Origin: a virus
Lineage: Duplodnaviria; Caudoviricetes
IMG/VR virus record: IMGVR_UViG_3300049063_000008
Location: 1-57,692 of that record
DNA length: 57,692 nucleotides
Strand: one strand, 5' to 3'
The notes under the pieces: model-generated
Databases searched by the model: none
Seen by the model: only the letters and a program-made list of their open reading frames with translations
Told to the model about the DNA's origin: nothing
In this document: positions 28,872 through 42,085 of the stretch, piece by piece
Layout of the letters: each line of letters opens with the position of its first letter
How positions within the stretch are numbered: position 1 is the stretch's first letter
Translations under genes and position numbers: made by a program

Positions 28872-29079
28872 TAGTTGCCGCTAGAACCCGATTACGTACA
28901 GCTTGTGTACTTTGTGTAACGTAACCTTCGATCCACCTATCCTGATCCTTCTCAAATGATTCATCTAGTTCTTTTGTGCGAGTTGGATTGTGAACTGTGC
29001 AATTTCTATGGATACCTGCATCTGAACTGCACAACCACTCACAATCAAACTTTTCGTCCGGGCCTATAGATAAGGTCAT
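28855..29079 (-). CDS. Hypothetical protein
   Basis: Coupled ORF. Confidence 0.5.
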   Translation of the reverse strand: MTLSIGPDEKFDCEWLCSSDAGIHRNCTVHNPTRTKELDESFEKDQDRWIEGYVTQSTQAVRNRVLAATNGSRV

Positions 29080-29619
29080 CTAGTACCAACCATTCGCATT
29101 GTGGAATGCTAGAGCGGCGCATGATCCACCGTAACGAGTATTCACGTAGTAGATCATCCACTTTAGCTGAGTCCACGGATTAGTCATGTAGTCTTTACCC
29201 CATGGCCTCATCTTAGAAGCCGGAAGTGCCTGACCAATACCGTATGCTCCGCTACCTTGATAGTTCCAAATTGTGGGACTATACGTTCCTACTGTTTCTC
29301 TGCGGCTAATTTCTCTGAGGCAAGGATCTGGAAACGCATGTGCTCCCCACGTCGGACGTGGTGGATACAAGAGTCGTAGAGTTTCTTTACGTTCTCTTGC
29401 GAGCCACAAACGTGCGTGACAATGCCATGTTCTAGTACTGCCCTTCCCGTTGTTGCAGACGTACTTAACATGTTTGAGATTTTCTGTCTGACTTGCTAGC
29501 TGTGCCTTTAAGCTGTCGTTTTTCGGCTTAGTGACTAAATGGGCCTGTGCTGTCGGAACCCAAAATGCCACGAAACTGATGATGACAATTGTTAGCGCAT
29601 ATCTAGCTCGTTTTGACAA
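29080..29619 (-). CDS. Secreted lytic transglycosylase (lysozyme-like)
   Basis: Signal peptide ending AQA; RRET, SGAYGIGQALPASKM, TNPWTQLKW...YV..RYG...A...H...GWY. Confidence 0.85.
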   Translation of the reverse strand: MSKRARYALTIVIISFVAFWVPTAQAHLVTKPKNDSLKAQLASQTENLKHVKYVCNNGKGSTRTWHCHARLWLARERKETLRLLYPPRPTWGAHAFPDPCLREISRRETVGTYSPTIWNYQGSGAYGIGQALPASKMRPWGKDYMTNPWTQLKWMIYYVNTRYGGSCAALAFHNANGWY

Positions 29620-29646
29620 AATGCTCCTAACCTAGCTGACAGAAAG

Positions 29647-29714
29647 TTAGGAGGCAAATGACACCTAACGGGCGGTGGACGTCATTTTGTTGTTAGTTGC
29701 CACTTGCCTCCTAA
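29647..29714 (-). ncRNA. Structured RNA module (17-bp closing stem)
   Basis: TTAGGAGGCAAGTGGCA/TGTCATTTGCCTCCTAA; two G-U pairs only on the - strand. Confidence 0.6.
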
Positions 29715-29716
29715 TA

Positions 29717-29774
29717 ACCAAAGGGCGGTATTTACTGAGAGCCGTACTAACTCCCTTCAATACCGCCCTTTGGT
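29717..29774 (-). ncRNA. Structured RNA module (16-bp perfect stem)
   Basis: ACCAAAGGGCGGTATT/AATACCGCCCTTTGGT. Confidence 0.6.
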
Positions 29775-29805
29775 GAGCGCGATGAGACTTAGCCCATCGG
29801 TTAGC

Positions 29806-29834
29806 ACCCTAGCAGATGCGCTCCTTGTTGTCAA
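29806..29834 (-). promoter_or_regulatory. Promoter inside the RNA array
   Basis: TTGACA-N17-TAGGGT with extended TG. Confidence 0.7.
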
Positions 29835-29841
29835 CCCTAAT

Positions 29842-29942
29842 TGTGGCCTAGTGTGGAAATAGCCTTAACAGCCATTTCTACCCCACCCGTTCGTTCTGTC
29901 CATGAACTCGGCTGTGGGGCACTGTGGCTACACTAGGCCACA
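29842..29942 (-). ncRNA. Structured RNA module, three-way junction
   Basis: TGTGGCCTAGTGT/ACACTAGGCCACA closing stem; inner TGCCCCAC/GTGGGGTA and GAAATGGC/GCTATTTC. Confidence 0.65.
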
Positions 29943-29947
29943 TTGTA

Positions 29948-30016
29948 GAGCTACGTTAGGCAGGGAGTGTACCCCTACACTGTCTAGACACTGTATCAGC
30001 ACTTCTAACGTAGCTC
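29948..30016 (-). ncRNA. GAGCUACG-stem RNA module A
   Basis: GAGCTACGTTAG/CTAACGTAGCTC 12-bp stem. Confidence 0.65.
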
Positions 30017-30146
30017 ACGGCAGGGAGGTAAATCAAAGCCGAAGGGCATAACGGATACGTTAAGAATCTCCCTACGGACCCGGTTCATCGTGCGTATCCA
30101 ACACTTCACCGATGGTTCTTCTTTGATTTACCTGATTCCCTGCCGT
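30017..30146 (-). ncRNA. Long rod-like RNA module
   Basis: ACGGCAGGG..AGGTAAATCAAAG/CTTTGATTTACCTCCCTGCCGT plus inner GGATACG/CGTATCC. Confidence 0.65.
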
Positions 30147-30161
30147 CAACTACGTATTAGA

Positions 30162-30255
30162 ATGATAGCCTGCGAGTTGCCGAATCTCGCTACTCCATCT
30201 TAGGGGATGGTGTTATATTACCGTATTTTGCGAACTGCTTAACTAAGGCTACCAT
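30162..30255 (-). ncRNA. Multi-arm (cloverleaf-like) RNA module
   Basis: ATGGTAGCCT/AGGCTATCAT closing stem; CCATC/GATGG and GCGAG/CTCGC arms. Confidence 0.55.
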
Positions 30256-30279
30256 CTTCCGATGCGGCCACCGGATTAT

Positions 30280-30361
30280 TGAGCTACGCAACCGTCGTAC
30301 TCGGTATCCCGAATGACATACGTATATTACCTACCACAGAGATAGCGTATTGCGTAACTCA
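30280..30361 (-). ncRNA. GAG(U/C)UACG-stem RNA module B
   Basis: TGAGTTACGCAA/TTGCGTAGCTCA (U-G pair on the - strand); two inner hairpins. Confidence 0.65.
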
Positions 30362-30694
30362 TGGACGTGGCGGGAATCGAACCCGCGTCCGAACTAGCGG
30401 TATACACATTTCTTCTAGCAGCTTATCTTACGGGGGCAACTAGGTTAGCTTACCCTCCACCACTCAGTCTTTCCTGAGAGTCAACACCAATGACTGTTAG
30501 ATGGTCATTGTTTACTACGATCTGCCTAATTATGTTCCGTGGTTAGACAGCAACCAGGACTTCATCCATAACCCAATCAGGGATGAAGTCGGGGCACTTG
30601 TTATCTGCGCCGTTTGTGTGGTTTGCTAATTTAGGTGTTAGCAACCGCTGCGAACTGTGTATCCTTACTAACCCGTCGAAACCAGTACACGCCC
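30362..30694 (-). ncRNA. ssrA: tmRNA
   Basis: 5' GGGCGTG...TTCGAC; 3' GACGCGGGTTCGATTCCCGCCACGTCCA; acceptor stem with G3-U; helix 2 pairing; PK1; tag ORF 30611-30543; CCA not encoded. Confidence 0.93.
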
Positions 30695-30703
30695 TTGTAT
30701 TAC

Positions 30704-30803
30704 TGAGCTACGTCACTTGTATCTAGTTTGTGGCGATACCATTCGGCTCGGATTAGGCCACCTTTTAAGGGAAAGGCGTCTAGACCTTGAATGACGTAGC
30801 TCA
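30704..30803 (-). ncRNA. GAGCUACG-stem RNA module C
   Basis: TGAGCTACGTCA/TGACGTAGCTCA plus TCTAG/CTAGA and GTGGC/GCCAC helices. Confidence 0.65.
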
Positions 30804-30804
30804 A

Positions 30805-30913
30805 TAGCTTAGGAGAGAATCGAACTCTCAGGGGACAGATATTAGATAGTACGTTACCATGACCCACCCCTCTATCCGTACTTCACCACGTAACCAATTC
30901 GTGGGACTAAGCT
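30805..30913 (-). ncRNA. tRNA-like RNA lacking a canonical anticodon arm
   Basis: Acceptor AGCTTAG/CTAAGCT+A; D-arm CCACG-AATTGGTTA-CGTGG; T-arm GAGAG-TTCGATT-CTCTC; ~55-nt insert in place of the anticodon arm. Confidence 0.75.
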
Positions 30914-30917
30914 ACCT

Positions 30918-31034
30918 TAGAGTAGGCTACCCTTACTTTAGGACGGCGAGCCGACTAACTAAAGGTTTGGTACTTACGAGCGTCACGGTATTGAGCATTG
31001 TGTACTCACCGCTTCTTTGTTCCTACCTACTCTA
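30918..31034 (-). ncRNA. Structured RNA module
   Basis: TAGAGTAGG/CCTACTCTA closing stem; CTTTAG/CTAAAG and TGAGTA/TGCTCA arms. Confidence 0.55.
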
Positions 31035-31043
31035 GTTGTCAAG

Positions 31044-31109
31044 AGAGTGGTCATGTTTGTTGGTATGGGATTCATTTGCAGTGATAACCCACACCATCCG
31101 GCCCACTCT
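31044..31109 (-). ncRNA. Structured RNA module
   Basis: AGAGTGG/CCACTCT with inner TGGT/TGGG helices. Confidence 0.4.
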
Positions 31110-31133
31110 TTAAAACGCGGGTGGCTTTTTGCT

Positions 31134-31189
31134 GCAACTAACGAGAGAGCCACCACAACTCTCTACTGACTGAACAGTTCGTTAGTTGC
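31134..31189 (-). ncRNA. Three-way junction RNA module
   Basis: GCAACTAACGA/TCGTTAGTTGC; ACTG/CAGT; AGAGAGT/GCTCTCT. Confidence 0.55.
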
Positions 31190-31234
31190 TCTATGTGTAA
31201 CGTTTCCCCGATGCCTCGGTTACGTATAGTTCCG

Positions 31235-31423
31235 CTACACTAGACTTGTTGGTCTACGTCTGGAAGCCCATCTTTGTGGTTGCCGTCTTACTGGCCTTGT
31301 CCGCGCAGGGTTTGCCTGCTGCTCATCTAGTTGTACGTATTCGCAATCAAGGCAGTAGTGAGCCTTTGCACTATTGTCGTAGTGCAGTTCACTGTCGATG
31401 CAATATGGACAATACCTCTTCAT
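31235..31423 (-). CDS. Small Zn-ribbon protein with Arg-rich tail
   Basis: AGGAGGT RBS; CPYC...CLDC; RTRPVRRQPQRWASRRR. Confidence 0.65.
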   Translation of the reverse strand: MKRYCPYCIDSELHYDNSAKAHYCLDCEYVQLDEQQANPARTRPVRRQPQRWASRRRPTSLV

Positions 31424-31499
31424 TGCTACCTCCTGCCTTGTGTTTCTAAAGGCCACTTTGAGATTGAACTCCACAGCTTAACTGAGTGGCCTATCTTAC

Positions 31500-31802
31500 T
31501 TACGCAGACTTTCCGATAGCCTGGTTAACGAGGTAAATCTTGTCATCCTTCTTGACAACCTTAACCTCGGCAGCACCCTCCGGCGGCTCCTTACCCGACT
31601 TGGCGTTTTCGAAACCAGTCTTAACCGTCTGAGGCTTCTTCTCTGCGAAAGCACCCTCAGTCAGTGGAACCTCAACAAGCCGATAACCCGACTTAATGAA
31701 AGCATCGAGAACGAGCTTGTAATCGCCACGACCACGCGCTCCTGCAAGAATATCTGCAAGTGTAGCGTCGTCCTCAATCGGGGTGAACATGGTGCTAGAC
31801 AT
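31500..31802 (-). CDS. Hypothetical protein, paralog 1 (ncRNA-associated family)
   Basis: AAGGAGAG RBS; aligns by eye with 39547..39837. Confidence 0.75.
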   Translation of the reverse strand: MSSTMFTPIEDDATLADILAGARGRGDYKLVLDAFIKSGYRLVEVPLTEGAFAEKKPQTVKTGFENAKSGKEPPEGAAEVKVVKKDDKIYLVNQAIGKSA

Positions 31803-31865
31803 TCCGTTCTCTCCTTGTGTTGTATTGCTTGTTTGATTACTTCTATTACGGGCCAATGCGCTCTC

Positions 31866-32282
31866 CTAACTTTTACCTTCTAGCTTACGCAGCCTTGCTT
31901 CTGTTGCTGCTATGTATTTCTTTAAGTCGATTCCTTCTAGCCTCCCCTCCATGACGTTTACTCTCTGGGAGAGCCTATCAAAAGGCGTCGGCATTGTCAA
32001 GCCCTGACCTAGACCAAGTGGACGATCCATGTCCTCCAACTCCGGTCTACGGTGGAGCACAATCTGAGTACGGATTCCCCTAGAGCCACGCCGCACTTGT
32101 TCCATACAACCTAGCTCATAAAGCGTATTACACACCCTTCCGTAATTAGCATTAGAAATACCAAGTGCGGAGAATAGCTCAACTAGCTTCCCTTCCCACA
32201 CACCATCCTCTGAGGTTAGCAAAAGACCGTCATAGAGAGTTTGGCAATGACGGAGCAATGTCTCCTTAGTCAAAGCAGGCAT
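31866..32282 (-). CDS. Putative winged-helix protein
   Basis: LVELFSALGISNANYGRVCNTLYELGCMEQVRRG. Confidence 0.6.
   Translation of the reverse strand: MPALTKETLLRHCQTLYDGLLLTSEDGVWEGKLVELFSALGISNANYGRVCNTLYELGCMEQVRRGSRGIRTQIVLHRRPELEDMDRPLGLGQGLTMPTPFDRLSQRVNVMEGRLEGIDLKKYIAATEARLRKLEGKS
31972..32000 (-). promoter_or_regulatory. Intragenic promoter upstream of paralog 1 and the RNA array
   Basis: GGGC-TTGACA-N17-TAGGCT with extended TG. Confidence 0.75.
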
Positions 32283-32285
32283 AGA

Positions 32286-32618
32286 CTATGCAGCCTCTTC
32301 CAGTGGTTTCAGATTTTGTTCTCTCGACATAAGATCAAGAGATCCCATGAAGCACCATCGACACACATGGTATTCCTCAATCTCTACTGTGATCCTACTT
32401 CGCTTAGTGTCATACGGATTTCCGCTTTTATCTGTCTCGGGAATGTTCTCACCATGCAATGGAACCGTACAACTGTGAGATAGATTCTGCGGAAGTGTAA
32501 ACCAGTGTGTATTCGTACGGATTGTGTAATCCGGGCCTCCCTTCTTACGTTTTGAGCTAGCTGCCAGAATAGCAGCTTCTTGGTCGGCGTCAATTTCCTT
32601 GAACACTAACACCCCCAA
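32286..32618 (-). CDS. Hypothetical Cys/His protein
   Basis: CTVPLH...CRWC. Confidence 0.55.
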   Translation of the reverse strand: MGVLVFKEIDADQEAAILAASSKRKKGGPDYTIRTNTHWFTLPQNLSHSCTVPLHGENIPETDKSGNPYDTKRSRITVEIEEYHVCRWCFMGSLDLMSREQNLKPLEEAA

Positions 32619-32910
32619 TTCCGTAGAGGTTTTTGACGAATTCGCGCGTAGTCTCTACAGTGATTCTACGTGCATCTTTGCTCTTACCCTTCGCAATTGC
32701 ATTGATGATCCTGATTTGCAGACTTGCGAAAGCGCGCTCGTACTGAAATTCTGCTTCAACTCTGTTAATTCCCTCGGCGTAGTAAACATTCACCGATGGG
32801 TGAAGCTGGAACATCTGGCAATTGTTCTTACGACAGTAATACCGGAACATTGCTCTAAGCCACATTGCTCCCGCACGATTGGCTTCAATGAGAATCAAGA
32901 CTGTTTTCAT
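32590..32910 (-). CDS. Hypothetical protein
   Basis: ORF in the operon. Confidence 0.55.
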   Translation of the reverse strand: MKTVLILIEANRAGAMWLRAMFRYYCRKNNCQMFQLHPSVNVYYAEGINRVEAEFQYERAFASLQIRIINAIAKGKSKDARRITVETTREFVKNLYGIGGVSVQGN

Positions 32911-33430
32911 CCTGTGGGGGTTTTATGGACAACCACAATTCTAGACCAGTTCTGCTCAATGATACGTAATCCTGGCTAATTGACAGAATTAGATCACGCG
33001 GCACACCCTTCTCTACTAGACCATTGATAAGTCTTTCGCGCTGTACCTGATCCTGGCGCTCTTTTGCCTCTCTTGCTTCTCTTGCGACACGCTCTCTTTC
33101 TTCGCGCTCTAGTCTCTGCTGCTCATACTTCGCAAGTTTGGCGGCCTGTTCTGCTTCGCGCTCTTTTAGAATTCCATTGCGCTCGTTCTCGTAGTCTGTC
33201 CAGAAGTCAATGACGTCTCTAGCCTTGATTTCTACAAGGCGTAGAACATCGCCAGTTTCCTTATCGAGTTCCTCTAGCTGAACATAGGCGGTCTTGTTCT
33301 CCTTGAACATTTCCTTCTGTTTCCAAACCCTAATAACTCTGCCCTTTCGGGCATTCATTACGAAAGAGCCACGCGGCTTTGCATTTACGAATGCGTACTC
33401 TTCTCCTGCCCATAGGCTTTGTGCGTTCAA
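32885..33430 (-). CDS. Hypothetical protein with charged coiled coil
   Basis: GGAGG RBS; E/R-rich helix. Confidence 0.7.
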   Translation of the reverse strand: MNAQSLWAGEEYAFVNAKPRGSFVMNARKGRVIRVWKQKEMFKENKTAYVQLEELDKETGDVLRLVEIKARDVIDFWTDYENERNGILKEREAEQAAKLAKYEQQRLEREERERVAREAREAKERQDQVQRERLINGLVEKGVPRDLILSISQDYVSLSRTGLELWLSIKPPQDENSLDSH

Positions 33431-33699
33431 GTTAGCGGAACCTCCTCTCTTGTACCTAGTGCGTATCCTGTAATAACACTAGACATTATTGCAACCTGTA
33501 GAGCTTCTTGCGCCGTCCAACCAAACCTGAAAGCGTTTGCACTAATTTTGAGCATACGCCAATGTGCAAAATCTGCTAGATCAGCCGGTTCAAGACCCAT
33601 GCGAACTTGCCAGTACTCTAGTGTATCGACATTCTCACGCTCTAGTTGTTCGTCTTGATTCACAACTTCTGTTAGAACCTCGAATAGTTTATTGTCCAT
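33427..33699 (-). CDS. Hypothetical protein
   Basis: Coupled ORF. Confidence 0.6.
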   Translation of the reverse strand: MDNKLFEVLTEVVNQDEQLERENVDTLEYWQVRMGLEPADLADFAHWRMLKISANAFRFGWTAQEALQVAIMSSVITGYALGTREEVPLT

Positions 33700-33871
33700 T
33701 ACTGTTCGATCTTTGCCTTGTAGCCGTTGGGCAACTGATCGTTGATAACATCTTCAATATGCGACCAATTAATTTCCGTGGCAAGTTCTGAAAACCGCTC
33801 AGGAGGTACAGCATCGTCAGAACGAACTACGATATGCCGAATTGAAAAAGCTTTGGTTACGATAGATGGCA

Positions 33872-34189
33872 CTACTTATTCAACCTCCTTGCAAGATCCT
33901 TACGGTTGAAAGTTCCACAAGGCAAGCCGGGGCCGTTATCTGCCACGATATAAACATGGTCAGAGCGGTAGTCAATATACATTAGCCACTTGTCCATGAC
34001 AACTGTGGGCTTTTCCTGCTTAACTGCCTTTGCTAGTTCATCTCTAGCTTCGTCGGTGAATACACCCTTAGCTGCTGTACTACGTGCCTGATAGTTCTCA
34101 ATTGCACTATTGGGTGCAAGTGGCTTAAACAGATCGCGGGGTTCAATTGCTGGCATGGTAGTTCCGATTTCTGCGAAGTGCTCTGGCAA
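33872..34189 (-). CDS. Hypothetical protein
   Basis: ORF in the operon. Confidence 0.55.
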   Translation of the reverse strand: MPEHFAEIGTTMPAIEPRDLFKPLAPNSAIENYQARSTAAKGVFTDEARDELAKAVKQEKPTVVMDKWLMYIDYRSDHVYIVADNGPGLPCGTFNRKDLARRLNK

Positions 34190-34266
34190 TTGACTTAATC
34201 GGACGAGAATCGCCGCTTGACTTAATAGCTAGAGCCTCTTTACGGTTCTTACGGTTTCTAATTCCC

Positions 34267-34485
34267 TTACCCAAGTAGAGCCGCCTTTCTTTTCTCTCGC
34301 TTTGTCTTTCTGCGCTCTTTGCTATTTGGGCCGACAGGTACCATAACGGTACGCGGCCTACGTTCAACTACTAGATCAGTTGGAATAGGCTCATCGTCAA
34401 TGTAGAAAGCTTCTGCCATTAGATCAACCTCTGTACCTGCGCTCCATGGTCCATAAGATTTGCGTAGCACATGTTTAGTTAGCAT
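34267..34485 (-). CDS. Hypothetical protein
   Basis: ORF with basic C-terminus. Confidence 0.5.
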   Translation of the reverse strand: MLTKHVLRKSYGPWSAGTEVDLMAEAFYIDDEPIPTDLVVERRPRTVMVPVGPNSKERRKTKREKRKAALLG

Positions 34486-34574
34486 CGTATTTGTCTACAA
34501 TCTCCTGTATGATATCGTAATCCTCTTTGAGTTTCTTGCGCTCAAAACTGAATGGAGGTAGTCTATTGATATCG

Positions 34575-34838
34575 CTAGTCAGAGCCTCCAACGCCGTTCT
34601 CAGATGTAGCAGCGTCAAGTTGCTCATCAAGATCAATTGGACCCCCAACTGTAGGCTTACGTACAATACTCTGCTGTTTTCGCACAAACTTGATACCATG
34701 TTCCTTAAACGTCGTTTCTACGAAAGCAGCCAGCTTATTGAGCATTTCTTGGGCATCTTCCATAGTGCCCGTAACTTGAATACCGCCACCAAATAGGGCA
34801 GCACAGTACCAAGTGTCAGTTACCGGGCTATCTTCCAA
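34575..34838 (-). CDS. Hypothetical protein
   Basis: GGGAG RBS. Confidence 0.5.
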   Translation of the reverse strand: MEDSPVTDTWYCAALFGGGIQVTGTMEDAQEMLNKLAAFVETTFKEHGIKFVRKQQSIVRKPTVGGPIDLDEQLDAATSENGVGGSD

Positions 34839-34879
34839 ATCGCGCTCCCTTCGATTGTCCCCTAAATCTTACCATAGAC

Positions 34880-35062
34880 CTAGCTGGAAGTCAAGTGCAA
34901 CTCTGCGTTATCGTCCATATGCCTCACTGCTAGTCCTAGTTCCCCTAATGTGGGTTGTCCACATTCTGGGCAGTAGCTTGGCTTTCGTGGATTAATCCAA
35001 CAGAGTAGGAATCCGCAGCATGGCATCTGGAATAGCCGGAACGGGACTCTTTCAACTGTCAT
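34880..35062 (-). CDS. Small Zn-ribbon protein
   Basis: PCCG...CPECG. Confidence 0.6.
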   Translation of the reverse strand: MTVERVPFRLFQMPCCGFLLCWINPRKPSYCPECGQPTLGELGLAVRHMDDNAELHLTSS

Positions 35063-35149
35063 TGTGCTACCATAATTCCTAGCGCAAATCCACTAAGCCA
35101 CACTATTGCGATATTAAACCAGAAGTGCCAGTAAAGGGGATTTCTGAAC

Positions 35150-35368
35150 TTACTCTCCATATGCTGTCTCGTCTCCAAAATCGCGGTTCCTGTGAAAGTA
35201 AGGCACCACAGGGTCAGGATTACACTCTAGACACTCGATTCCTCTGTAACTTCCGTGGATGCAATAAAGCTCGGGGAACTCTTCCCATGCCATTGCTACT
35301 TCGTCAACTGCAATCCTACCTTCGTACTCAGGAGTTACGTTATCGTCTTTGTCTGAGTAAAGCATCAA
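35150..35368 (-). CDS. Small Zn-finger protein
   Basis: CIHG...CLEC. Confidence 0.55.
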   Translation of the reverse strand: MMLYSDKDDNVTPEYEGRIAVDEVAMAWEEFPELYCIHGSYRGIECLECNPDPVVPYFHRNRDFGDETAYGE

Positions 35369-35568
35369 AGATCCTCAATTCTTTTCATCAAGTCTGTCAT
35401 CGCTTTGAGCACACCGCGATAATCTTCTAATGTCATCTCTCGGTGCCGTTCAAAGTATGTGAGCAAGACTCTTACATCGCCATAGCGAAAGCGTCTATCC
35501 GAGTACGTAGCAATAAAGCTAAAATGGTCACATACATAATCTTCCTGAATTACCATTAAAGCCTCCAA
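35365..35568 (-). CDS. Hypothetical protein
   Basis: Coupled ORF. Confidence 0.5.
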   Translation of the reverse strand: MEALMVIQEDYVCDHFSFIATYSDRRFRYGDVRVLLTYFERHREMTLEDYRGVLKAMTDLMKRIEDL

Positions 35569-35849
35569 GGTCCGAAAACATTCTTGGGGTCGATTTGAGT
35601 GTAACGCTCCAAAGCGACGTACATTTGGTACATCTGGTTTCCTAGCTTTGCTTCGTTATTTGAGCGATAGTGGTCAATGCCTCCAAAATGGATTTCAACA
35701 CTGAGCATCCTACCCCACATATTCTGCCACCAACCTTCATCAAGCGTAAGACCGAGGTTGGTTGCGTGACGCGCACAGCCCTCGCAATCATCAAAGAGGA
35801 TCGTTTCCGTATCCTCCATTGTTCTCGGATGATATCTGTGACTAGCCAT
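35556..35849 (-). CDS. Hypothetical protein
   Basis: H..H...DDCEGC. Confidence 0.6.
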   Translation of the reverse strand: MASHRYHPRTMEDTETILFDDCEGCARHATNLGLTLDEGWWQNMWGRMLSVEIHFGGIDHYRSNNEAKLGNQMYQMYVALERYTQIDPKNVFGPWRL

Positions 35850-36023
35850 TAGTCGGCCAAAGTTTCAACATTGAGACTAAGCGGGCCAAGCGTGTTCATT
35901 GCCTGAACCACCTTATCGCGCTGACTATCACTAGAACAGTAGCGGCGGAGAGTAACGACCTTTGCATCCTCATCGAGAATGGTCGGCCCTTCACGAAAAG
36001 TTGCGGTAACGTTGTAGTGCATG

Positions 36024-36266
36024 TTAAACCTCCACTCTTGTGTAATTGTACTCTAGACAAGCAATCATGCCATCGAGGTACTGGTACATTTCTCTTGCCT
36101 CTAGCAGCAAGCCGTTCAATGGTGTCTCGCTGCTGTCCGTATTTATCTCCCACAATCTATAGCCAGTACCCCTACCCATGCCTTGGCCCTGAACGTAAAA
36201 ATTGCGGCCGGAGATACGATTGAGGTAACTAACCTTGCGCTGTAGCACCCCCGTCGTTACTCTCAT
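36024..36266 (-). CDS. Hypothetical protein
   Basis: GGAGG RBS. Confidence 0.6.
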   Translation of the reverse strand: MRVTTGVLQRKVSYLNRISGRNFYVQGQGMGRGTGYRLWEINTDSSETPLNGLLLEAREMYQYLDGMIACLEYNYTRVEV

Positions 36267-36467
36267 CTAAGCCTCCTTGGTTAGAAGTTCAAGGTTGTTC
36301 TCTGTAACGTAGTCGTATGAGTACAGTCCATGCTTAATTGGAACACGTACCCTACTAGGGTCACGCTTCCAAGTGTGGACCTGCCCGCTAACCTTCCAGC
36401 GTTTGTTATCGCTGGTTAGAAGAATATCACCGGGCTTTAGATTCTTGGCCTCTTCAAGCGTCAACAT
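36267..36467 (-). CDS. Hypothetical SH3-like protein
   Basis: LKPGD...RWKVSG...TWKRDP.R.RVPIKHGLY. Confidence 0.65.
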   Translation of the reverse strand: MLTLEEAKNLKPGDILLTSDNKRWKVSGQVHTWKRDPSRVRVPIKHGLYSYDYVTENNLELLTKEA

Positions 36468-36846
36468 TCATTGCTCGCTTTCTTTGCTCGATTTTGAGAA
36501 TCTCTCTTAGCTGCGCTCTTGAAAAACTGTCGCCTCGGGTACGCCAAAGTGCGCGGATCTGATTCTTGCGCCACTCCGGTAAGGTAGATTCCTTAATTTC
36601 CCTAAACATGATCTACAAAGATGTGCGTCCAGTACGCTCCTACGGTAATCATGGTGATACCCCGAAACGAGAACATTTGTCTAAAAAACATCTTCATACT
36701 CTAGCTCCGTATTAGGGATCAAAGGTGAATTCCAAATCAAGGTCAGTGTACCTTTGTAGTCTTGAATGGTATAAAGCTCGTTCTCTTGACCATCAATGTC
36801 TAGTTCACGATCAATGATCTTGTCTAGTTGTAGTCTAGCTTCTGCT

Positions 36847-37200
36847 CTAGTCACGCTTCACCAACTCCATTAGCTTGTCGGTAGCGAAGTATTCTGCATC
36901 TTCTGGGCCGATTGGCCTTGTCTCGATCAACTCCCATTCATGGAGCCATTCTACAACTTCTTTACGAGTCGTCAATAGATGCCAGTTCTCACTGTTGTAA
37001 CTATGTGATGAACGCTCACCAAACCAGTACCAATCGAAACTTGAGATATACTCCGATTCGCGCTCGATGTGGAGAATTGCCCATCCCGTTCCCTTAGAAG
37101 TAACCGCCATAGGATCAACGGGAACATCAATTCTTACGATGATGTCGCCCCGCTGTACTTTCGGCTCCATATTGTCTGCGTAGATGTCTGGCCTAGTCAT
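36847..37200 (-). CDS. Hypothetical protein
   Basis: Coupled ORF. Confidence 0.55.
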   Translation of the reverse strand: MTRPDIYADNMEPKVQRGDIIVRIDVPVDPMAVTSKGTGWAILHIERESEYISSFDWYWFGERSSHSYNSENWHLLTTRKEVVEWLHEWELIETRPIGPEDAEYFATDKLMELVKRD

Positions 37201-37420
37201 TAGGAAGGATTCCTCTTTCCTTTAGCATGGCGATGTACTGATCGTATACTTTCTGCCTACTTCCCTTAAATCCAAACTCACGCTTGACGTGGGCAAATGT
37301 GCTACCGCCCTTAAATCTTAGTCCCATTAGCTCTAGCTTCAATCTTCCCTTGATTGAGAGGAGGCGAACAGCTTCAATACCTTCTGGTGTGTCAATCATA
37401 ATGCCCATTAGTCCTCCCAC
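37193..37420 (-). CDS. Hypothetical protein
   Basis: LKLELMGL...KREFGFKGSRQKV. Confidence 0.6.
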   Translation of the reverse strand: MGGLMGIMIDTPEGIEAVRLLSIKGRLKLELMGLRFKGGSTFAHVKREFGFKGSRQKVYDQYIAMLKERGILPND

Positions 37421-37695
37421 AATTCGCTGATGGGGTAAATGTCGGGATCAGGTGAACACGCATCTAGAAACTTTAGTGGATCAAACTTCGGATTATCTTC
37501 CTTGAATCTTTTAGCGAAGCTAAGTGCAAGATTGACTAGTGCTGCAACAGCATAGTATCTTGCTTTCCGCTCTTTCCGCATAGACTCAAATTCTGGCGTA
37601 TAGAAATCCATCTCGATTTTGAGAGGCTCTCTGATTTCTTTAGCAATAGCGTTGTAGTGCGCTCTATGGAACAGTGGTTCTTTGCGTTTAGCCAT
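37408..37695 (-). CDS. Hypothetical protein
   Basis: HYNAIA...DNPKFD..KFLDAC. Confidence 0.65.
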   Translation of the reverse strand: MAKRKEPLFHRAHYNAIAKEIREPLKIEMDFYTPEFESMRKERKARYYAVAALVNLALSFAKRFKEDNPKFDPLKFLDACSPDPDIYPISELWED

Positions 37696-37988
37696 TACTT
37701 CACCTTCCTTACTGGATGGTGCCCGCGCTTCAAGACTGAGCGTTCCATATCCCGCAAGCACTCATCGGTTGCGTGAACTCCGTACTCTGAGGGATACGTC
37801 TCTTTTCTGTCTGCTCTAACAGCTTCGATGAAAGCAATGACAGGATTGGTATATGCCATTTCTGCCCTATCTAGCGTCTTTGGAATCTCATCCTCTGAAC
37901 TAGCATAGTAGTGGAAAACCCCCCACACATCTTCACCGTCGTTTTTCTCGTTGATACGGCTAACGACGTAACCGTTGTCTGCGCTCAT
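37695..37988 (-). CDS. Hypothetical protein
   Basis: MSADNG...EYGV. Confidence 0.6.
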   Translation of the reverse strand: MSADNGYVVSRINEKNDGEDVWGVFHYYASSEDEIPKTLDRAEMAYTNPVIAFIEAVRADRKETYPSEYGVHATDECLRDMERSVLKRGHHPVRKVK

Positions 37989-38500
37989 CTTTCAAAGCTC
38001 CCTTCTTCGACTACTACCGTTGTTTTGCAATCCGGGCATCTGCCCCTAGCTGTTCTTTCGCGCAGCCTATGACGTAGCCAAAAGCGACCACAGGTGGGGC
38101 AGCTTAGTTTCCATTGGTAGGGCTTACTCATTACTATTCCTGGATCGTCGTCGCTCCAACATCTTTCGGGATCAGCGCCAATTCTACGGCAGACGTGCTT
38201 CCAGTAGAAGCCGTGGCCTTTGCCCGCACTGCCATACTCTTTATATGCTAGAGCATGTGCGATTTCGTGCAGAATGGTGTCTCGGATCTTCTCCATGTCG
38301 GAGAGTACAAAGTGCTCCGAGATTTCGATTAGCTGCTTAATGTACCAACAGTATCCGAAAGCGTTTAGTGTTTTGGAGAGCTGGAAGGTCCAATCATGCA
38401 GACCGTGTTCGTCCATGAGTTGTCTCGCCAGTTTGCTAACTTCTGCGGCACGTTCAAGCTCCGCAAGAATTGGACTACTATCGCTGACTACTTTGAACAT
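37985..38500 (-). CDS. SprT-like zinc metalloprotease
   Basis: TILHEIAH...GHG..WK...IG plus C-terminal CxxC...CxxC. Confidence 0.85.
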   Translation of the reverse strand: MFKVVSDSSPILAELERAAEVSKLARQLMDEHGLHDWTFQLSKTLNAFGYCWYIKQLIEISEHFVLSDMEKIRDTILHEIAHALAYKEYGSAGKGHGFYWKHVCRRIGADPERCWSDDDPGIVMSKPYQWKLSCPTCGRFWLRHRLRERTARGRCPDCKTTVVVEEGSFER

Positions 38501-38673
38501 CTGATGATTACGCTCATATCCGGTTCAATGTGAAAGACGACACCCTCAATGTTGATACGAAGTGCCCATTTATTCGTACCATCGTTGAGAAACTTTCGTA
38601 CAGCTTCGCGGATATCAGTTTCTCGGACACTATCCTTGGTTGGATGGATTGTATGTACCTCGTAAAGTTCCAT
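38488..38673 (-). CDS. Hypothetical protein
   Basis: Coupled ORF. Confidence 0.5.
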   Translation of the reverse strand: MELYEVHTIHPTKDSVRETDIREAVRKFLNDGTNKWALRINIEGVVFHIEPDMSVIIRCSK

Positions 38674-38988
38674 TTAGTCAACCTTTGCCATGTTCCCGAC
38701 GTTTACAAGCACTGAGGAGATTGTGTACTCTCCGTACTTCTCTCTGAATGCGGCATCGCCCATGTAGTGATCTTCTCCCTGTTTGTAGGGAATGTTCACT
38801 ACTGCGCTGATGTTGCCGTATGGGTGGATGTAAAAGCCCTCGATTGTTCCGATGAGGCTATTCTCGCGCTCTGCGAAAACCTTTACCTTATCTCCAACTT
38901 TGAATCCAACATGTGAGATTGACTCCATTATGAGTACTCCAACTTCTTCATTAGCTCCTCGACTTGATGCTTTTCGCCGATGGTGCAA
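38674..38988 (-). CDS. Hypothetical KOW/SH3-like protein
   Basis: FKVGDKVKV...GTIEG; start probably near 38931. Confidence 0.5.
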   Translation of the reverse strand: MHHRRKASSRGANEEVGVLIMESISHVGFKVGDKVKVFAERENSLIGTIEGFYIHPYGNISAVVNIPYKQGEDHYMGDAAFREKYGEYTISSVLVNVGNMAKVD

Positions 38989-39097
38989 GTGTTGTAAAGC
39001 TTCTCGTAAAGCTCTACGTTCAATGGATTGGAAACTCTACCAACTGCGGCAGTGATATAAACCAAATCGCCTAGTTCCTCTGAAAGCTCAATCTGCA

Positions 39098-39304
39098 TTA
39101 CTGCAACCTCAATTCACTATTGCGACATGTAAACCTAACTGGACGAGCCTGACTAGGATCACTACTATCCAAAAGAATGATGTTGATTCCATTCTCGTTT
39201 ACTCCGATGGACAGTACGGCGGGCTTTGTTCCATCTTGCTCTACGATCCTGATTCTGGCTCTGTTCTCAGAATCTTTTGCTGCATAGTCAATGATTGTTG
39301 CCAT
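39098..39304 (-). CDS. Hypothetical protein
   Basis: AAAGGA RBS. Confidence 0.55.
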   Translation of the reverse strand: MATIIDYAAKDSENRARIRIVEQDGTKPAVLSIGVNENGINIILLDSSDPSQARPVRFTCRNSELRLQ

Positions 39305-39318
39305 TGCTTTCCTTTCTC

Positions 39319-39446
39319 AGTAGGGTTAGTGAAGGGTATTGAGAACGTCCGTTTCGGATCATTGGCACGAGATACTAGGAATCGAACCTAGAGGACCTCC
39401 GCTTTTATCCCGCCCTACCCGCTCAATACCCTTCACCAACCCTACT
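39319..39446 (-). ncRNA. Long-stem RNA enclosing a tRNA minihelix
   Basis: 25-bp stem with one G-U on the - strand; inside GCGGGATA/TATCTCGT + CTAGG-TTCGATT-CCTAG + GCCA. Confidence 0.7.
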
Positions 39447-39468
39447 TTGATTCAGGGTTGGGTTTTGT

Positions 39469-39537
39469 AGGGAGAGCCTTTGCCCTGTTATTGTACGCTC
39501 TCCCTTATCTATGCCGCCATAATGCCGGGGGCGACAT
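39469..39537 (-). ncRNA. Two tandem hairpins
   Basis: ATGTCGCC/GGCGGCAT and AGGGAGAGC/GCTCTCCCT. Confidence 0.45.
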
Positions 39538-39546
39538 TTCTGTGCT

Positions 39547-39837
39547 TTACAGATGGACGATGTAGAGGTTGTCGTCCTTGCGAATCAGACGCCAAACCTG
39601 CTTCAACTCCAACTTATTGATTCGACTGCCGATTGAGGTATAGAGGCTATCCGTCTTTTTACCCTCGAACGGGGAACCATCGACGCCGTTGAGCTGGATG
39701 AGGAAAGTTCCCTCGTTATCCTTGCTCCACGTATCGTAAAACTCGCCGAGGTTCTTGAGGAAAGCGTCAACTGCACCACGAACTCGGGCAGATGCCTCAA
39801 TTTCCTTTGCGGTAGTCTCATCGACTACTGTGAACAT
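39547..39837 (-). CDS. Hypothetical protein, paralog 2 (ncRNA-associated family)
   Basis: AAAGGAG RBS before MFTVVD; aligns by eye with 31500..31802. Confidence 0.75.
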   Translation of the reverse strand: MFTVVDETTAKEIEASARVRGAVDAFLKNLGEFYDTWSKDNEGTFLIQLNGVDGSPFEGKKTDSLYTSIGSRINKLELKQVWRLIRKDDNLYIVHL

Positions 39838-39947
39838 CTTGCGCTCCTTTAGTTGATTGCACCATCTTACTTCTTCTAGCAATTGTGGACTTTCTGCGAA
39901 TGAACTTCTTAGGGCTGTACGCGCTCTGTATTCGGCTAGTGTCTCAA

Positions 39948-40178
39948 TTACTCGACCACCACCTTTCCGTTGCGCTTTACGATCTTACCGTAGAACTTGC
40001 GATTGGTGAAGGGACATGGGCCAACGAAAGTGTAGCATCCATCTGGCGCAGTGTCAAGTGGCCCATCGTACTCGTTATCCAACATTGATGTTGCTTCTAG
40101 AATGATGTTGGGTACGTGTTCCTTTACTTCTTTCTTAGAGCGTGGTCTGATATGGTTCTCTAGAAATAGACCCTGCAA
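39948..40178 (-). CDS. Hypothetical protein
   Basis: RPRSKKEVK...EATSM...EYDG...VGP.P...RKFY. Confidence 0.65.
   Translation of the reverse strand: MQGLFLENHIRPRSKKEVKEHVPNIILEATSMLDNEYDGPLDTAPDGCYTFVGPCPFTNRKFYGKIVKRNGKVVVE
40029..40057 (-). promoter_or_regulatory. Intragenic promoter upstream of paralog 2
   Basis: TTGACA-N17-TACACT with extended TG. Confidence 0.7.
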
Positions 40179-40420
40179 TTGTTTACCCCCGTCTAAGAAT
40201 TTCGATGAACTCTAGATAGAGCTTGATTTCACGGAACAAGAGTCCGATGCCGTTCATGATTTATTCCTCTTGTTCCATTACTTCCACGTCAACTACCATG
40301 CAGTTTTCTGAATCGGCAATACTATGCGCCCATTCATCAGCATCTTTTCGTGCTGATTCCAAATCAGGATACGGTAATCCTGTATCCATTAGACGAATAG
40401 TAAAGTTGTAGAGCTTCATT

Positions 40421-40618
40421 TTACCACATCGCCTCCACGTACTCTAGAAAGTAAGGCACTAGAGCGTCATCGTAAAAGGGGTCTAATGTCTTTGGCATGT
40501 TGTTAGCGATTGTCGGGCGGTGAGCGTGAAGCACGTTGAAATATGTCTGACCCATTCGCCAATCGGTATGGGCTACTTTTTGTTTCGTGACTTCTCTTAG
40601 ATAGTCGGCAAATGTCAT
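40421..40618 (-). CDS. Hypothetical protein
   Basis: WRMGQTYFNVL...P...LDPFY. Confidence 0.65.
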   Translation of the reverse strand: MTFADYLREVTKQKVAHTDWRMGQTYFNVLHAHRPTIANNMPKTLDPFYDDALVPYFLEYVEAMW

Positions 40619-40854
40619 CTACAATTACCACACCCTTTCCAGGTAAGAGGCATTTTCGTGGGATCAAAAGTGTCCAACCCATATTTCTTGAGCCTACAGA
40701 AACATTCATAGGGATCAGTAATTGCGCCCAGCAACTCTAGGTGCGTTCGCATTCCTGATCCCGAATGCTCTCTCTGGAACATTGCAACCAGTTCTTCTAT
40801 CGGATTTAGCTCTGTACGTTCCTCCATGTGTTGTAGATATCTCTGCAAATCCAT
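40615..40854 (-). CDS. Hypothetical protein
   Basis: GGAGGGAG RBS. Confidence 0.55.
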   Translation of the reverse strand: MDLQRYLQHMEERTELNPIEELVAMFQREHSGSGMRTHLELLGAITDPYECFCRLKKYGLDTFDPTKMPLTWKGCGNCR

Positions 40855-40916
40855 CTATTCGCGCTCCCTCCGGTAAAACAAACTTTGGCAAACGGCAAAC
40901 TAGCGGTTTTACCAAC

Positions 40917-41056
40917 TATCCTAGTAATACTCAATGCTACACACTTGGATCACTTTGCTACACCATATATCGCACTATGTATTACTAGGATATAGTCCAA
41001 ATACCGGGGATTTGCAGGGATTTCACCCAAAATGTCCCCTAGTAATACATAGTGCG
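40917..41056. repeat. Three alternating-orientation copies of CCTAGTAATAC forming two inverted repeats
   Basis: 40917-40930/40979-40992 (14 bp) and 40971-40989/41038-41056 (19 bp). Confidence 0.8.
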
Positions 41057-41104
41057 GTATAGAGAGCGTGTGGTAGAAAACCTGTGTTCGCTTTTTGAAC
41101 TTTA

Positions 41105-41317
41105 TTAGGGGACAATCGGCCCGCAGCGATGATTGCCCATTGTTACACAGTTCCACAGTGGGCTATCCTCTTCGATCCTCCACTTTGCTGCGCTTTGCTC
41201 TCTTTTGGCCTGTTGCCTTTCCTGCTCTAGCTCTCCCTGCCGCTCGATTGCTCCAACTGTGCCCATTGCGAGCACAAAAGAAAGAGCAACTGCGCCGGTA
41301 GCTACGCGCTGTTTCAC
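41105..41317 (-). CDS. Small exported/membrane protein
   Basis: AGGAGG RBS; N-terminal hydrophobic helix; EEDSP.WNC.TMGN..CG. Confidence 0.7.
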   Translation of the reverse strand: MKQRVATGAVALSFVLAMGTVGAIERQGELEQERQQAKREQSAAKWRIEEDSPLWNCVTMGNHRCGPIVP

Positions 41318-41337
41318 TTGATCCTCCTGTGGTGGTG

Positions 41338-41440
41338 TACCCTCAAATAACCCCTAATCCAAGTAAGCCTATGGTCTAGTCTCGCTGCGCTCTATGTGTG
41401 CAGTATGCCACAGTTAGCGACTAGGGGTTAGTTGAGGGTA
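41338..41440 (-). ncRNA. Intergenic long-stem structured RNA
   Basis: TACCCTCAA-C-TAACCCCTAGTC/GATTAGGGGTTA-T-TTGAGGGTA. Confidence 0.5.
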
Positions 41441-41441
41441 G

Positions 41442-41534
41442 TTACCCCTTCCTGACAACTACTAGGAAGGGGATACCCTTGCGAGTGTAGTGGATGGTCT
41501 TACTGAGAATGACGGGGAAACCGTAGTTATGCAT
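41442..41534 (-). CDS. Small protein (30 aa)
   Basis: AGGAGGG RBS; MHNYGFPVILSKTIHYTRKGIPFLVVVRKG; first ORF after the promoter. Confidence 0.5.
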   Translation of the reverse strand: MHNYGFPVILSKTIHYTRKGIPFLVVVRKG

Positions 41535-41582
41535 TCCCTTCCCTCCTATGTGGCGTATAGCCTGTACTGTGCTGCTAGGTAC

Positions 41583-41621
41583 AGTGTAGGGCTTGACCGT
41601 GTTGTTGTCAAGCCCTACCCT
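41583..41621. promoter_or_regulatory. Overlapping divergent promoters in an inverted repeat
   Basis: - strand TTGACA-N17-TACACT (41611-41583); + strand TTGACC-N17-TACCCT (41593-41621); inverted repeat TAGGGCTTGAC/GTCAAGCCCTA. Confidence 0.7.
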
Positions 41622-41629
41622 CTACCTAT

Positions 41630-41947
41630 CTACTGCGTGTTGCCGTGGATGCTGCCCATCTGTGCCATTAGTGCTCTATCGTCGCGCTTGGCCGCAACGT
41701 ACACCATTGCGCGCTTGCGCTCTAGTCCAACTCTGCGCGTATGCTGTCTGTGCTGCTTAGACGGCTTCCAGCGTGGTGACACTCTAACCTCAGTGCCATC
41801 TACGATGCCCTTCCATCGCAACCCTGCGGGCGGGGCAATGATCGGCTTAGGCGAGAGAGCCTGTACTGTCTGCATCCTAGCGCGTTCGATGCGCTCCTTG
41901 CGCTGCGTGCGCGTCTCTGCGTTGCGCTCGTAAAGCTTGTGCTCCAT
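41630..41947 (-). CDS. Basic Arg-rich early protein
   Basis: AAGGAG RBS; first gene of the - strand block. Confidence 0.6.
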   Translation of the reverse strand: MEHKLYERNAETRTQRKERIERARMQTVQALSPKPIIAPPAGLRWKGIVDGTEVRVSPRWKPSKQHRQHTRRVGLERKRAMVYVAAKRDDRALMAQMGSIHGNTQ

Positions 41948-42085
41948 GGTGTACGCTCCTTGTCTGAGCTATGTGGCGCTGAGGCCCTTTCAACTTCCTT
42001 GCACTAGGTACTTTACTCTGTCTAGCTTGATTTTGTGGTGACAGTCACCCAGTACCTCCAATTTGTTAATTGGTGTTGTCAGGTC

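Follow-up and report, generated by a model that had tools for sequence, protein, structure and literature searches.

Two expression cassettes, each built around one member of a pair of small paralogous proteins, were found in the early/replication arm of an uncultivated tailed phage from soil. The window analysed here is the whole virus record IMGVR_UViG_3300049063_000008 (57,692 bases, rated 100% complete), and all coordinates refer to it. In each cassette a promoter is followed by one paralog (protein A or protein B), then by hairpins specific to that paralog and, optionally, by a tRNA-like cargo, and this design is conserved among related phages. The best explanation, which we hold tentatively and at a little less than even chances, is that these are two conserved promoter-driven expression cassettes organised by processing hairpins. 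The original prediction had instead pictured a ribonucleoprotein system in which the small protein acts on the co-transcribed RNAs. The proteins and promoters of the two cassettes are as follows.

31972 to 32000, minus strand: promoter P_A, TTGACA, a 17-nucleotide (nt) spacer ending in TG-A, then TAGGCT; within the 3' part of the upstream 138-amino-acid (aa) gene
31500 to 31856, minus strand: protein A, an open reading frame (ORF) of 118 aa with a TTG start; basic N-terminal tail and alpha/beta core
40029 to 40057, minus strand: promoter P_B, TTGACA-17-TACACT with an upstream TG; within the upstream 76-aa gene
39547 to 39837, minus strand: protein B, an ORF of 96 aa from an ATG with a ribosome-binding site; frame open upstream to 39948

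Proteins A and B

The two proteins of about 100 aa had been described as paralogous, and BLASTP of 31500-31802 against 39547-39837 bears this out (E 3e-6, 28 of 103 positions identical). A profile of A-family proteins alone also aligned with B in hhalign (probability 81.7%, E 1.1e-5). Protein A had been placed at 31500-31802; its true start is the TTG at 31856 (MARNR...), because homologs start with MARxR. Of 41 candidate homologs of A, 35 share 53-93% identity with it, and most of their contigs are 55-58 kb long. When B was the query of the word-based search, only 2 near-identical proteins came back out of 3 candidates. By tblastn and hidden Markov models (HMMs), 12 phages with 8 kb or more of sequence upstream of A were compared, and in 11 of them a B-type gene precedes A on its strand (the window, G001, L020, L023, L004, L005, L039, L040, L043, L045 and L046; L036 is without one), and L037 has a weaker B copy 1.4 kb upstream of A. 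Among these locus handles G001 is the same as L029, and L025 is a second copy of the L005 sequence. In two distant relatives the A-only profile also matched weakly for a second time (E 5e-5 and 1e-4), 6.5-7.5 kb upstream of A, and both of these matches are clear B-type ORFs. Judged by sequence, the pair is an old duplication of which both copies were retained.

The two paralogs differ systematically at their most conserved segment. When 17 A and 12 B proteins were aligned, all A sequences had T[VLI]K[TQ]GFE[NG]A as their third helix; at the position of its lysine (K), B has Y in 10 of 12 proteins, F in L043 and R in L037. An R-x-[RK]-G loop and a GKK loop are conserved in the family alignments. 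The identity of A to its relatives is 58-85%, compared with 42-55% for three upstream genes. An exhaustive HMM search with a joint A and B profile recovered 156 cluster representatives at E <= 1e-3 (34 at E <= 1e-10), nearly all of 85-160 aa. The neighbourhood census rests on 19 phages and the family on these 156 clusters; the loci are related, so that the counts given below are not independent events.

The frame of B stays open on the minus strand over 39838-39948 and reaches back to an ATT codon overlapping the stop codon of the gene before it. In translation this extension is similar to the one in L023, which has an ATG at the same place; it may reflect initiation at a non-AUG codon, loss of the start, or a 5' leader that is conserved.

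Promoters Within the Preceding Genes

Near-consensus promoters buried in the upstream coding sequences had been noted for both cassettes. Both are present, and their conservation is unequal: a P_A-type promoter was found in 18 of 19 loci and a P_B-type promoter in 6 of 12. In the 260 nt searched, the P_A-type promoter lies 56-217 nt upstream of the A start; 17 of the 18 have an exact TTGACA with a 17-nt spacer, and 14 have the upstream TG. The P_B-type promoter lies within 260 nt upstream of B and in L023 occupies the same position. The background was 98 sites in 307,780 nt, or 0.083 per 260 nt. The bases CTTGACA and TGATAnGCT of P_A are invariant in all six aligned relatives, synonymous sites included. 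The codon under the P_A -10 element varies at its middle base (AGG/ATG/ACG/AAG) while the promoter bases stay. Because the encoded amino acid changes and the promoter bases are kept, the constraint at P_A is on the DNA and not on the protein. By these conserved features, P_A and P_B are predicted sigma-70-type promoters.

The pattern TTGACA-N17-TAnnnT occurs at five sites in the window against 0.71 expected, a number reached in 0 of 100 shuffles, and all five lie on the minus strand (41611, 40057, 32000, 29834 and 25064). A simple promoter scan of 28.5-42.5 kb gave 18 sites against 17.5 expected, listing P_B and, owing to its -10 rule, not P_A. Downstream of A, the minus strand from 31500 to 29834 holds no terminator-like site and no strong promoter-like site. 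The two cassettes are not alone in having strong promoters and long hairpins, as such promoters also occur at 41611, 29834 and 25064, and long inverted repeats at 40917-41061, 41338-41440 and 41576-41628. With arms of 21-24 nt, these inverted repeats fall in the region that separates B from the first early promoter, and one overlaps the 41611 promoter.

Two Hairpin Classes

Each paralog is followed by its own class of hairpin. The instances in the window are listed here with the bit scores of the covariance models R1 (B-type) and R2 (A-type).

39319 to 39446, minus strand: B-type hairpin, 25-bp stem, base UAGUGAAG / CUUCACUA; R1 110 bits
30700 to 30806, minus strand: A-type hairpin 1, base UGAGCUACG / CGUAGCUCA, directly after a tRNA mimic; inverted repeat, R2 63.4 bits
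30276 to 30364, minus strand: A-type hairpin 2, directly after a tmRNA gene; R2 52.9 bits and alignment
29943 to 30020, minus strand: A-type hairpin 3; R2 48.7 bits, inverted repeat I9

The models were built from instances and searched over 387 kb (E <= 2e-6). R2 had 11 matches in 6 phages (three in the window, two each in L023 and L039, and also in L004, L022 and L032), all 0.24-2.0 kb downstream of A. R1 had 9 matches in 7 phages (the window, L023 twice, G001, L039, L040 twice, L045 and L046), all between B and A. Neither type was found elsewhere in the 387 kb, the rest of the window included. Two R1 matches and one R2 match came from outside the training sets. The R1 consensus has 22 pairs, of which the 8 at the base are invariant and 11 show compensatory changes; the A-type stem base is likewise invariant, with covariation in the two innermost pairs alone. 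The loops measure 23-141 nt and are unrelated between phages. The B-type stem has 25 bp in the window, where it is the longest inverted repeat (25 nt, 96% complementary), and 15-23 bp in relatives. This length would fit an RNase III processing site of about two turns of double-stranded RNA.

Because the stem bases are conserved and class-specific, the ribonucleoprotein idea has been kept alive. A would read the GAGCUACG/CGUAGCUC stem base and B the UAGUGAAG/CUUCACUA base, and binding would protect, mature or deliver the framed RNAs, or feed back on expression of the cassette. We consider this unlikely. The positional pairing of hairpins and proteins is strict, with all 11 A-type hairpins after A and all 9 B-type hairpins after B, yet simple inheritance of synteny could produce such pairing. 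Across phages whose proteins are 20-40% identical the stem bases do not vary, and the systematic difference in the third helix (K in A, mostly Y in B), as well as the conserved R-x-[RK]-G and GKK loops, would suit two readers of two sequences. Hairpins were however found in just 6 of the 19 A-bearing and 7 of the 12 B-bearing phages. L004 has an A-type hairpin and L005 has none, despite near-identical A proteins, and among 17 aligned A proteins no residue was seen to covary with hairpin presence. Nor are A and B markedly basic, the tail of A excepted. Structure prediction of an A and B complex (score 0.12, mark 0.32) spoke neither for nor against binding.

Structured RNAs of the Two Cassettes

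The remaining features of the RNA regions, again with the feature that closes the A unit, are as follows.

39305 to 39546, minus strand: structured RNA region after B, 242 nt; two hairpins, then the B-type hairpin
31424 to 31499, minus strand: intergenic region of 76 nt between A and the Zn-ribbon ORF, containing a candidate hairpin at 31450-31492
31235 to 31423, minus strand: Zn-ribbon ORF with an Arg-rich tail, 62 aa from ATG
30805 to 30913, minus strand: tRNA mimic with a 7-bp acceptor stem, D-arm and T-arm and no normal anticodon arm, read from the sequence
30359 to 30694, minus strand: tmRNA (transfer-messenger RNA) gene, found by Rfam RF00023 and ARAGORN
29806 to 29834, minus strand: next strong promoter, TTGACA-17-TAGGGT; closes the A unit and heads a transglycosylase leader

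Structured RNA had been predicted after both paralogs. After B, the region 39305-39546 has a minimum free energy of -98.8 kcal/mol (z -6.18), and 0 of 200 shuffles were as stable. Strong folding after B was seen in all 7 loci tested (z -3.1 to -10.6), and the gap is ORF-free over 114-461 nt by a rule of ORFs of at least 70 aa (166-461 nt as folded stretches). The B-type hairpin of the window encloses what reads as a tRNA-like minihelix at about 39363-39413, with a 7-bp acceptor-like stem, a T-arm and a GCCA end. In the window, L023 and G001 the 3' arm of this hairpin abuts the ribosome-binding site of the next gene.

After A, the outcome was mixed for the hairpin at 31450-31492. In the window it is not significant (z -0.37, 67 of 200 shuffles as stable), and at the same spot 5 of 5 relatives have a strong one (z -4.7 to -7.2); in L022, L023 and L030 a second hairpin covers the ribosome-binding site of the Zn-ribbon ORF. 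The predicted Zn-ribbon/Arg-rich ORF is present, with tblastn matches directly after A in L019, L020, L022, L023 and G001; its zinc-ribbon matches in Pfam are all below threshold. It is followed by an ORF-free stretch of 1.6 kb that holds the tRNA mimic, the tmRNA and three hairpins whose base is GAGCUACG. The large array of structured RNAs described here is real and includes a known family. With 85.3 bits (E 1e-31) the tmRNA lies above the gathering score of 47, its match spans model positions 1-374, and ARAGORN assigned it a tag of 22 codons. The stretch upstream of the tmRNA folds with z -4.38.

T-arms had been noticed in both clusters, and the motif GTTCGATTC occurs three times (30382, 30825 and 39387), always on the minus strand, against 0.41 expected. 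Neither 30805-30913 nor 39363-39413 was called a canonical tRNA by ARAGORN, whose sole call was the tmRNA, or by Rfam. In Rfam on 29000-41500 (E <= 1), the tmRNA and two chance-level matches were obtained, with no other match of the tRNA clan. A type III toxin-antitoxin system was set aside, as Tandem Repeats Finder lists no array in 29600-31300 or 39300-39550.

On the minus strand at 29647-29834, the closing promoter and two strong hairpins form a leader directly before a transglycosylase-like gene (29080-29619). Leaders with a conserved loop sequence precede the same gene in G001 (83% over 42 nt), L023 and L020, and the leader may be a cis-regulatory RNA.

Cassettes in Related Phages

The architecture of the cassettes, as originally described, recurs well beyond close relatives: the paralogs, the promoter before A and the paralog-specific hairpins are found where A is only about 35-40% identical. 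Nearer relatives keep the gene order (181-aa gene, 110-aa gene, 138-aa gene, A, Zn-ribbon ORF, gap, transglycosylase gene), and none of them was found to have a tmRNA or tRNA. The slot after A holds collagen-repeat ORFs in L022 (338 aa) and G001 (368 aa) and a 125-aa ORF in L023, and it is about 470 nt long in L020. The collagen triple-helix-repeat ORFs (L022:4113-5129 and L029, i.e. G001, 383-1489) are flanked by the same hairpin types.

Such differing cargo (tmRNA, collagen-repeat ORFs, small ORFs) between conserved hairpins at one slot would also be expected if the hairpins were DNA-level recombination or boundary sites for cargo exchange, with A and B merely flanking hot spots. The conservation of stem bases of 8-10 nt amid diverged DNA is in keeping with this. 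The compensatory changes in the inner stem argue instead for selection on pairing, and both T-arm motifs and RNA contigs show this region to be read as RNA. No recombinase turned up among the proteins scanned, in which no search was aimed at recombinases. Exchange at the DNA level appears very improbable as the role of the hairpins.

Twelve more distant loci were added to the comparison, and tRNA-like RNAs or tmRNA were found downstream of the paralogs in at least three independent phages. In L039, whose A is about 40% identical to the query set, a T-arm element lies 377 nt after B, and a tmRNA (79 bits), homologous to that of the window (78% column identity), lies 718 nt after A. In L046 a tRNA (40.7 bits) begins 24 nt after B. 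For a ribonucleoprotein it counts that tRNA-like elements follow B by no more than 400 nt in the window, L039 and L046, that a tmRNA stands about 1 kb after A in the window and L039, and that the T-arm pattern across all loci is found 17 times in sense and once in antisense. Against it, close relatives keep A at 65-85% identity without a tmRNA or tRNA and have collagen-repeat ORFs or a short gap in the slot, and the gaps of many family members are at most 125 nt. L039 further has a separate promoter between A and the tmRNA. The proposed linkage of homologs to structured non-coding gaps is present, though not in all of them, and on this count the original idea was not refuted. When gaps were ranked by the crude rule of ORFs of at least 70 aa, without the gaps of other genes as a control, the gap after A (in the window, after A and the Zn-ribbon ORF) was among the top three in 8 of 16 loci.

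Some distant relatives have tRNA mimics with an acceptor stem, a T-arm and an aberrant anticodon region (L004:12220-12373, L006:3150-3330 and L005:12040-12253). Each immediately precedes a Cys-rich ORF of 147 aa, some 1.8-2.0 kb downstream of A, and in L004 an A-type hairpin directly follows the mimic. A Cys-rich ORF is also present between A and the tmRNA or helicase region at L039:10667-11077 and L046:10768-11169. The L039 ORF has a sub-threshold match to a TraR/DksA-type zinc finger (E 0.009) and its own promoter at its start.

Presence in RNA Libraries

Sequences of the region are present in RNA libraries. Six rhizosphere metatranscriptome runs contain 10-18% of the sampled words of 29000-32400, and contigs of four runs were aligned to the window at 95-100% identity. 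Contigs from three runs cover the tmRNA (30385-30759, 30399-30685 and 30474-30685), and others cover the tRNA mimic and the RNA upstream of it (30809-30995 and 30852-31013, 100% identity). Three lie on A (31451-31611, 31772-31942 and 31784-31948), and further contigs lie on the Zn-ribbon ORF, the transglycosylase gene, the gene before B and 39046-39239. The ends at 31942 and 31948, from two runs, fall just downstream of P_A and are a weak hint of a transcription start there. In the four runs no contig covered most of 32100-38900 and 40200-42000, which is no evidence of silence.

Fold and Possible Function of the Proteins

Sequence databases offered no family for the proteins. A and B matched nothing in Pfam, PHROGs or NCBIfam (Pfam and NCBIfam at E <= 0.1). 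For the family, a 100-row alignment (A4) was made from A of the window and 99 of the 150 listed HMM matches; seven proteins of more than 1000 aa with partial, repeat-like matches and a few short or partial ones were left out. Its 100 rows gave stray Pfam matches alone (WWE_2 in 3, LPD5 in 1, Rotamase_2 in 1) and no PHROG match (0 of 100), and a PDB profile search with the family reached a best E of 0.09. No match to A was found by tblastn in 50,697 GenBank phage records. A scan of reference genome contigs with A gave 8 pattern stretches and 0 relatives. In the ESM Atlas, A had no usable match and P0058 led to unnamed viral clusters alone, under 0.9.

An AlphaFold2 model of A on the 100-row alignment (mean predicted local distance difference test score, pLDDT, 82.9) shows a disordered basic tail, an extra N-terminal helix and then the order helix-strand-(short helix)-helix-hairpin of a winged helix (H45-56, E60-63, short helix 68-70, H75-87, E98-103, E106-111). 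The best VIA-align matches were to the C-terminal winged helix of Stn1 (Z 7.2, root-mean-square deviation 2.3 over 68 residues, and Z 6.8). Many winged-helix proteins, SelB among them, followed at Z of about 4-4.5. The winged-helix fold serves DNA binding and RNA binding alike. The model thus weakly suggests a winged-helix-like fold compatible with binding of DNA or RNA, and nothing more. A fold known to bind DNA only would have spoken against the original prediction; a winged-helix-like one does not refute it, and the assignment itself is weak.

These models bear on a second account, in which A and B are ordinary winged-helix DNA regulators, or replication or organiser proteins, and the RNAs and hairpins are unrelated neighbours. 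The helix-strand-helix-helix-strand-strand order and the matches to NiaR, PurR, CtsR, RepE and SSV1 F-112 (Z 4.0-4.5) agree with it. So does the position of A, which ends a conserved three-gene block (Cys-rich 110-aa gene, 138-aa gene, A) just upstream of SNF2 helicase, primase-like and polymerase genes, and so do the family members with short downstream gaps. It is opposed by the lack of a sequence match to any DNA-binding family in Pfam, PHROG, NCBIfam or PDB profiles, and it leaves unexplained two hairpin types with compensatory changes tied to two paralogs. We rate it as unlikely, about level with the ribonucleoprotein.

The same matches cut both ways for RNA binding. Five R3H or R3H-containing RNA-binding entries stand in the second tier of VIA-align (Z 4.4-5.7) and favour a ribonucleoprotein, while the best fold matches are protein- or DNA-binding winged helices. 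An R3H domain itself was rejected, as neither the A family nor the joint A and B alignment has a His in a column that is invariant or nearly so. SmpB was also considered for A and set aside: no Pfam or NCBIfam family was matched (E <= 0.1), and the PDB profile search returned no SmpB chain (E <= 1). A also occurs in relatives without a tmRNA. In BFVD the best match is to a phage protein of 92 aa that has an SmpB/ribosome entry mentioned in its name (E 5e-3, TM 0.47), and this name is a label alone. The best and fifth-best BFVD matches (A0A8S5N5G6 and A0A8S5N586; probabilities 1.00 and 0.99, E 5e-3 and 0.1) are two proteins of about 92 aa from a single uncultured podophage, which may be another phage with a pair of A/B-like fold.

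Organisation of the Cassettes

To return to the proposed organisation of the cassettes by processing hairpins, we infer promoter activity, co-transcription, hairpin cleavage and nucleic-acid binding by A and B. The cassettes of the early/replication arm would be built around an ancient paralog pair whose family is uncharacterised and winged-helix-like in fold. The RNA polymerase of the host would start at the near-consensus sigma-70-type promoter within the preceding gene (P_A or P_B), transcribe the small protein and then read through, with no recognisable intrinsic terminator, into the long hairpins. The hairpins would be RNA processing or stability elements of the RNase III-site kind that separate the mRNA of the protein from the downstream RNA. 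They would frame cargo RNAs, which are a tRNA mimic and a tmRNA after A, a tRNA or minihelix after B, and in other phages something different or nothing. Stable RNAs would settle in such strongly transcribed, processing-competent slots, and we propose that the cargo varies within a constant frame because of this settling. In this arrangement A and B would most likely be nucleic-acid-binding factors, with DNA or the hairpins as their target.

Several points weigh against this organisation. The main fact that it does not explain is the class specificity of the conserved stem bases: host RNase III would not need two conserved stem-base sequences, which points to a sequence-specific reader. The separate promoter of L039 (TTGACA-17-TACGCT) means that co-transcription of the tmRNA with A is no conserved rule. 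In 8 of 16 loci a small or low-ranked gap follows A, and after B the gap ranks among the top three in only 3 of 11 loci and fourth in three more. The folding z scores were set against shuffles and not against other intergenic gaps, and the hairpin at 31450-31492 is not significant in the window itself. The fold assignment is weak, as its best Z of 7.2 is below the caution line of 8, under which a match perhaps reflects a common arrangement, and Foldseek against the PDB gave nothing at E <= 0.001 with either model. Finally, the RNA contigs show presence alone, not ends or levels, and may include DNA carry-over.

Genome Setting

The phage encodes a tape-measure-like protein of 1863 aa, a Mu-type portal, an S49 protease and a UDG-PolA fusion, as well as a DUF3987 primase/helicase-like protein, a PD-(D/E)XK nuclease and an SNF2 helicase. 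In a scan of ten large proteins, no family of large RNA polymerases was found. Minus-strand genes run from about 42 kb down to 12 kb, and both cassettes lie inside this early/replication arm. A 20-nt tandem repeat at 174-193 recurs at 57615-57634, an offset of 57,441 nt. The record is classed as linear, yet because the same repeat stands near both ends, these appear to overlap by about 250 nt, as they would with a terminal repeat or if the assembly were circular.

Relatives among known phages and a host were sought as well. Megablast of 29000-41000 against GenBank phages gave a sole match of 33 nt, to the tmRNA T-arm of Xanthomonas phage XacN1. The exact pattern of the tmRNA 3' end was found in three contigs of metagenome-assembled genomes (MAGs; an Actinomycetes bin, a Lysinibacter bin and a Balneola bin). 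They were dropped as a lead to the host, as the A family is in none of them and the matches are mostly to the 30-nt T-arm/acceptor end. A 9.6-kb MAG contig (L048:6760-7160) carries a tmRNA that shares the acceptor end and an identical internal stretch of 23 nt with that of the window. Its tag frame looks long and ends like that of the window, and the contig has no A-family gene.

Relation to Known Systems and Outlook

The T4 tRNA cluster has extra stable RNAs, and mycobacteriophages carry tmRNAs. The island after A resembles such phage tRNA/tmRNA islands in that a tmRNA and tRNA-like RNAs lie in an ORF-free stretch that would be transcribed with early genes. It differs in that two conserved hairpin types frame the RNAs, in that the RNAs lie downstream of paralogous small proteins with their own promoters across the clade, and in that most relatives keep the proteins and some hairpins without a tmRNA.

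The nearest functional analogy would be the RNase III sites of phage T7, in which processing hairpins lie between early genes. Both regions have strong host-type promoters, short early cistrons and long hairpins without U-tracts between cistrons, and the stems of 20-25 bp found here would fit a double-strand-specific nuclease. In contrast to T7, the stem bases are conserved in sequence in two classes, and loops of 23-141 nt carry cargo, the minihelix included.

The winged-helix domains of SelB bind an RNA hairpin. The A model shares the H-E-(h)-H-E-E order with winged-helix domains such as those of Stn1, winged-helix repressors and SelB, and it differs from them in having no sequence relationship, an extra N-terminal helix and a basic disordered tail. 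Bacterial Y RNA/Rsr (Ro60) particles have tRNA-like modules, and at 39319-39446 a long stem of 5' and 3' ends likewise encloses a tRNA-like T-arm module. No Ro60/TROVE protein was found among the proteins scanned against Pfam, which were not every ORF, and no Rfam match of the Y RNA type in 29000-41500.

What is new here is the protein family, the paralog pair with its deeply conserved promoter and the two hairpin classes tied to the pair. Candidate structured and tRNA-like RNAs of IMG/VR phages have been catalogued, and the hairpin motifs may already be listed among those candidates (PMC10690425). Phage DS6A is reported to have a tmRNA without a coding sequence, and tRNA-like decoys to interfere with host trans-translation (PMC11915505). 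A bolder proposal, and a doubtful one, is that A and B found a new family in which each protein reads its own hairpin (GAGCUACG framing the tmRNA and mimics, UAGUGAAG caging the minihelix), and that the two together would protect, mature or deploy decoy RNAs directed against translation and ribosome rescue in the host.

If the cassettes are organised as we favour, soil phages would have an unannotated protein family that is widespread (156 clusters or more at 50% identity), a deeply conserved intragenic promoter that marks a transcription unit, and two new conserved hairpin motifs that organise stable-RNA islands. These would be of use in annotating the early regions of phages and in detecting those tmRNAs and tRNA mimics of phages that are overlooked by standard tools. 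Were the bolder proposal true, the family would represent a new class of proteins that bind RNA hairpins sequence-specifically, in which nature supplies both cognate and non-cognate pairs, and phage tmRNAs, here without smpB, would gain a dedicated phage protein partner.

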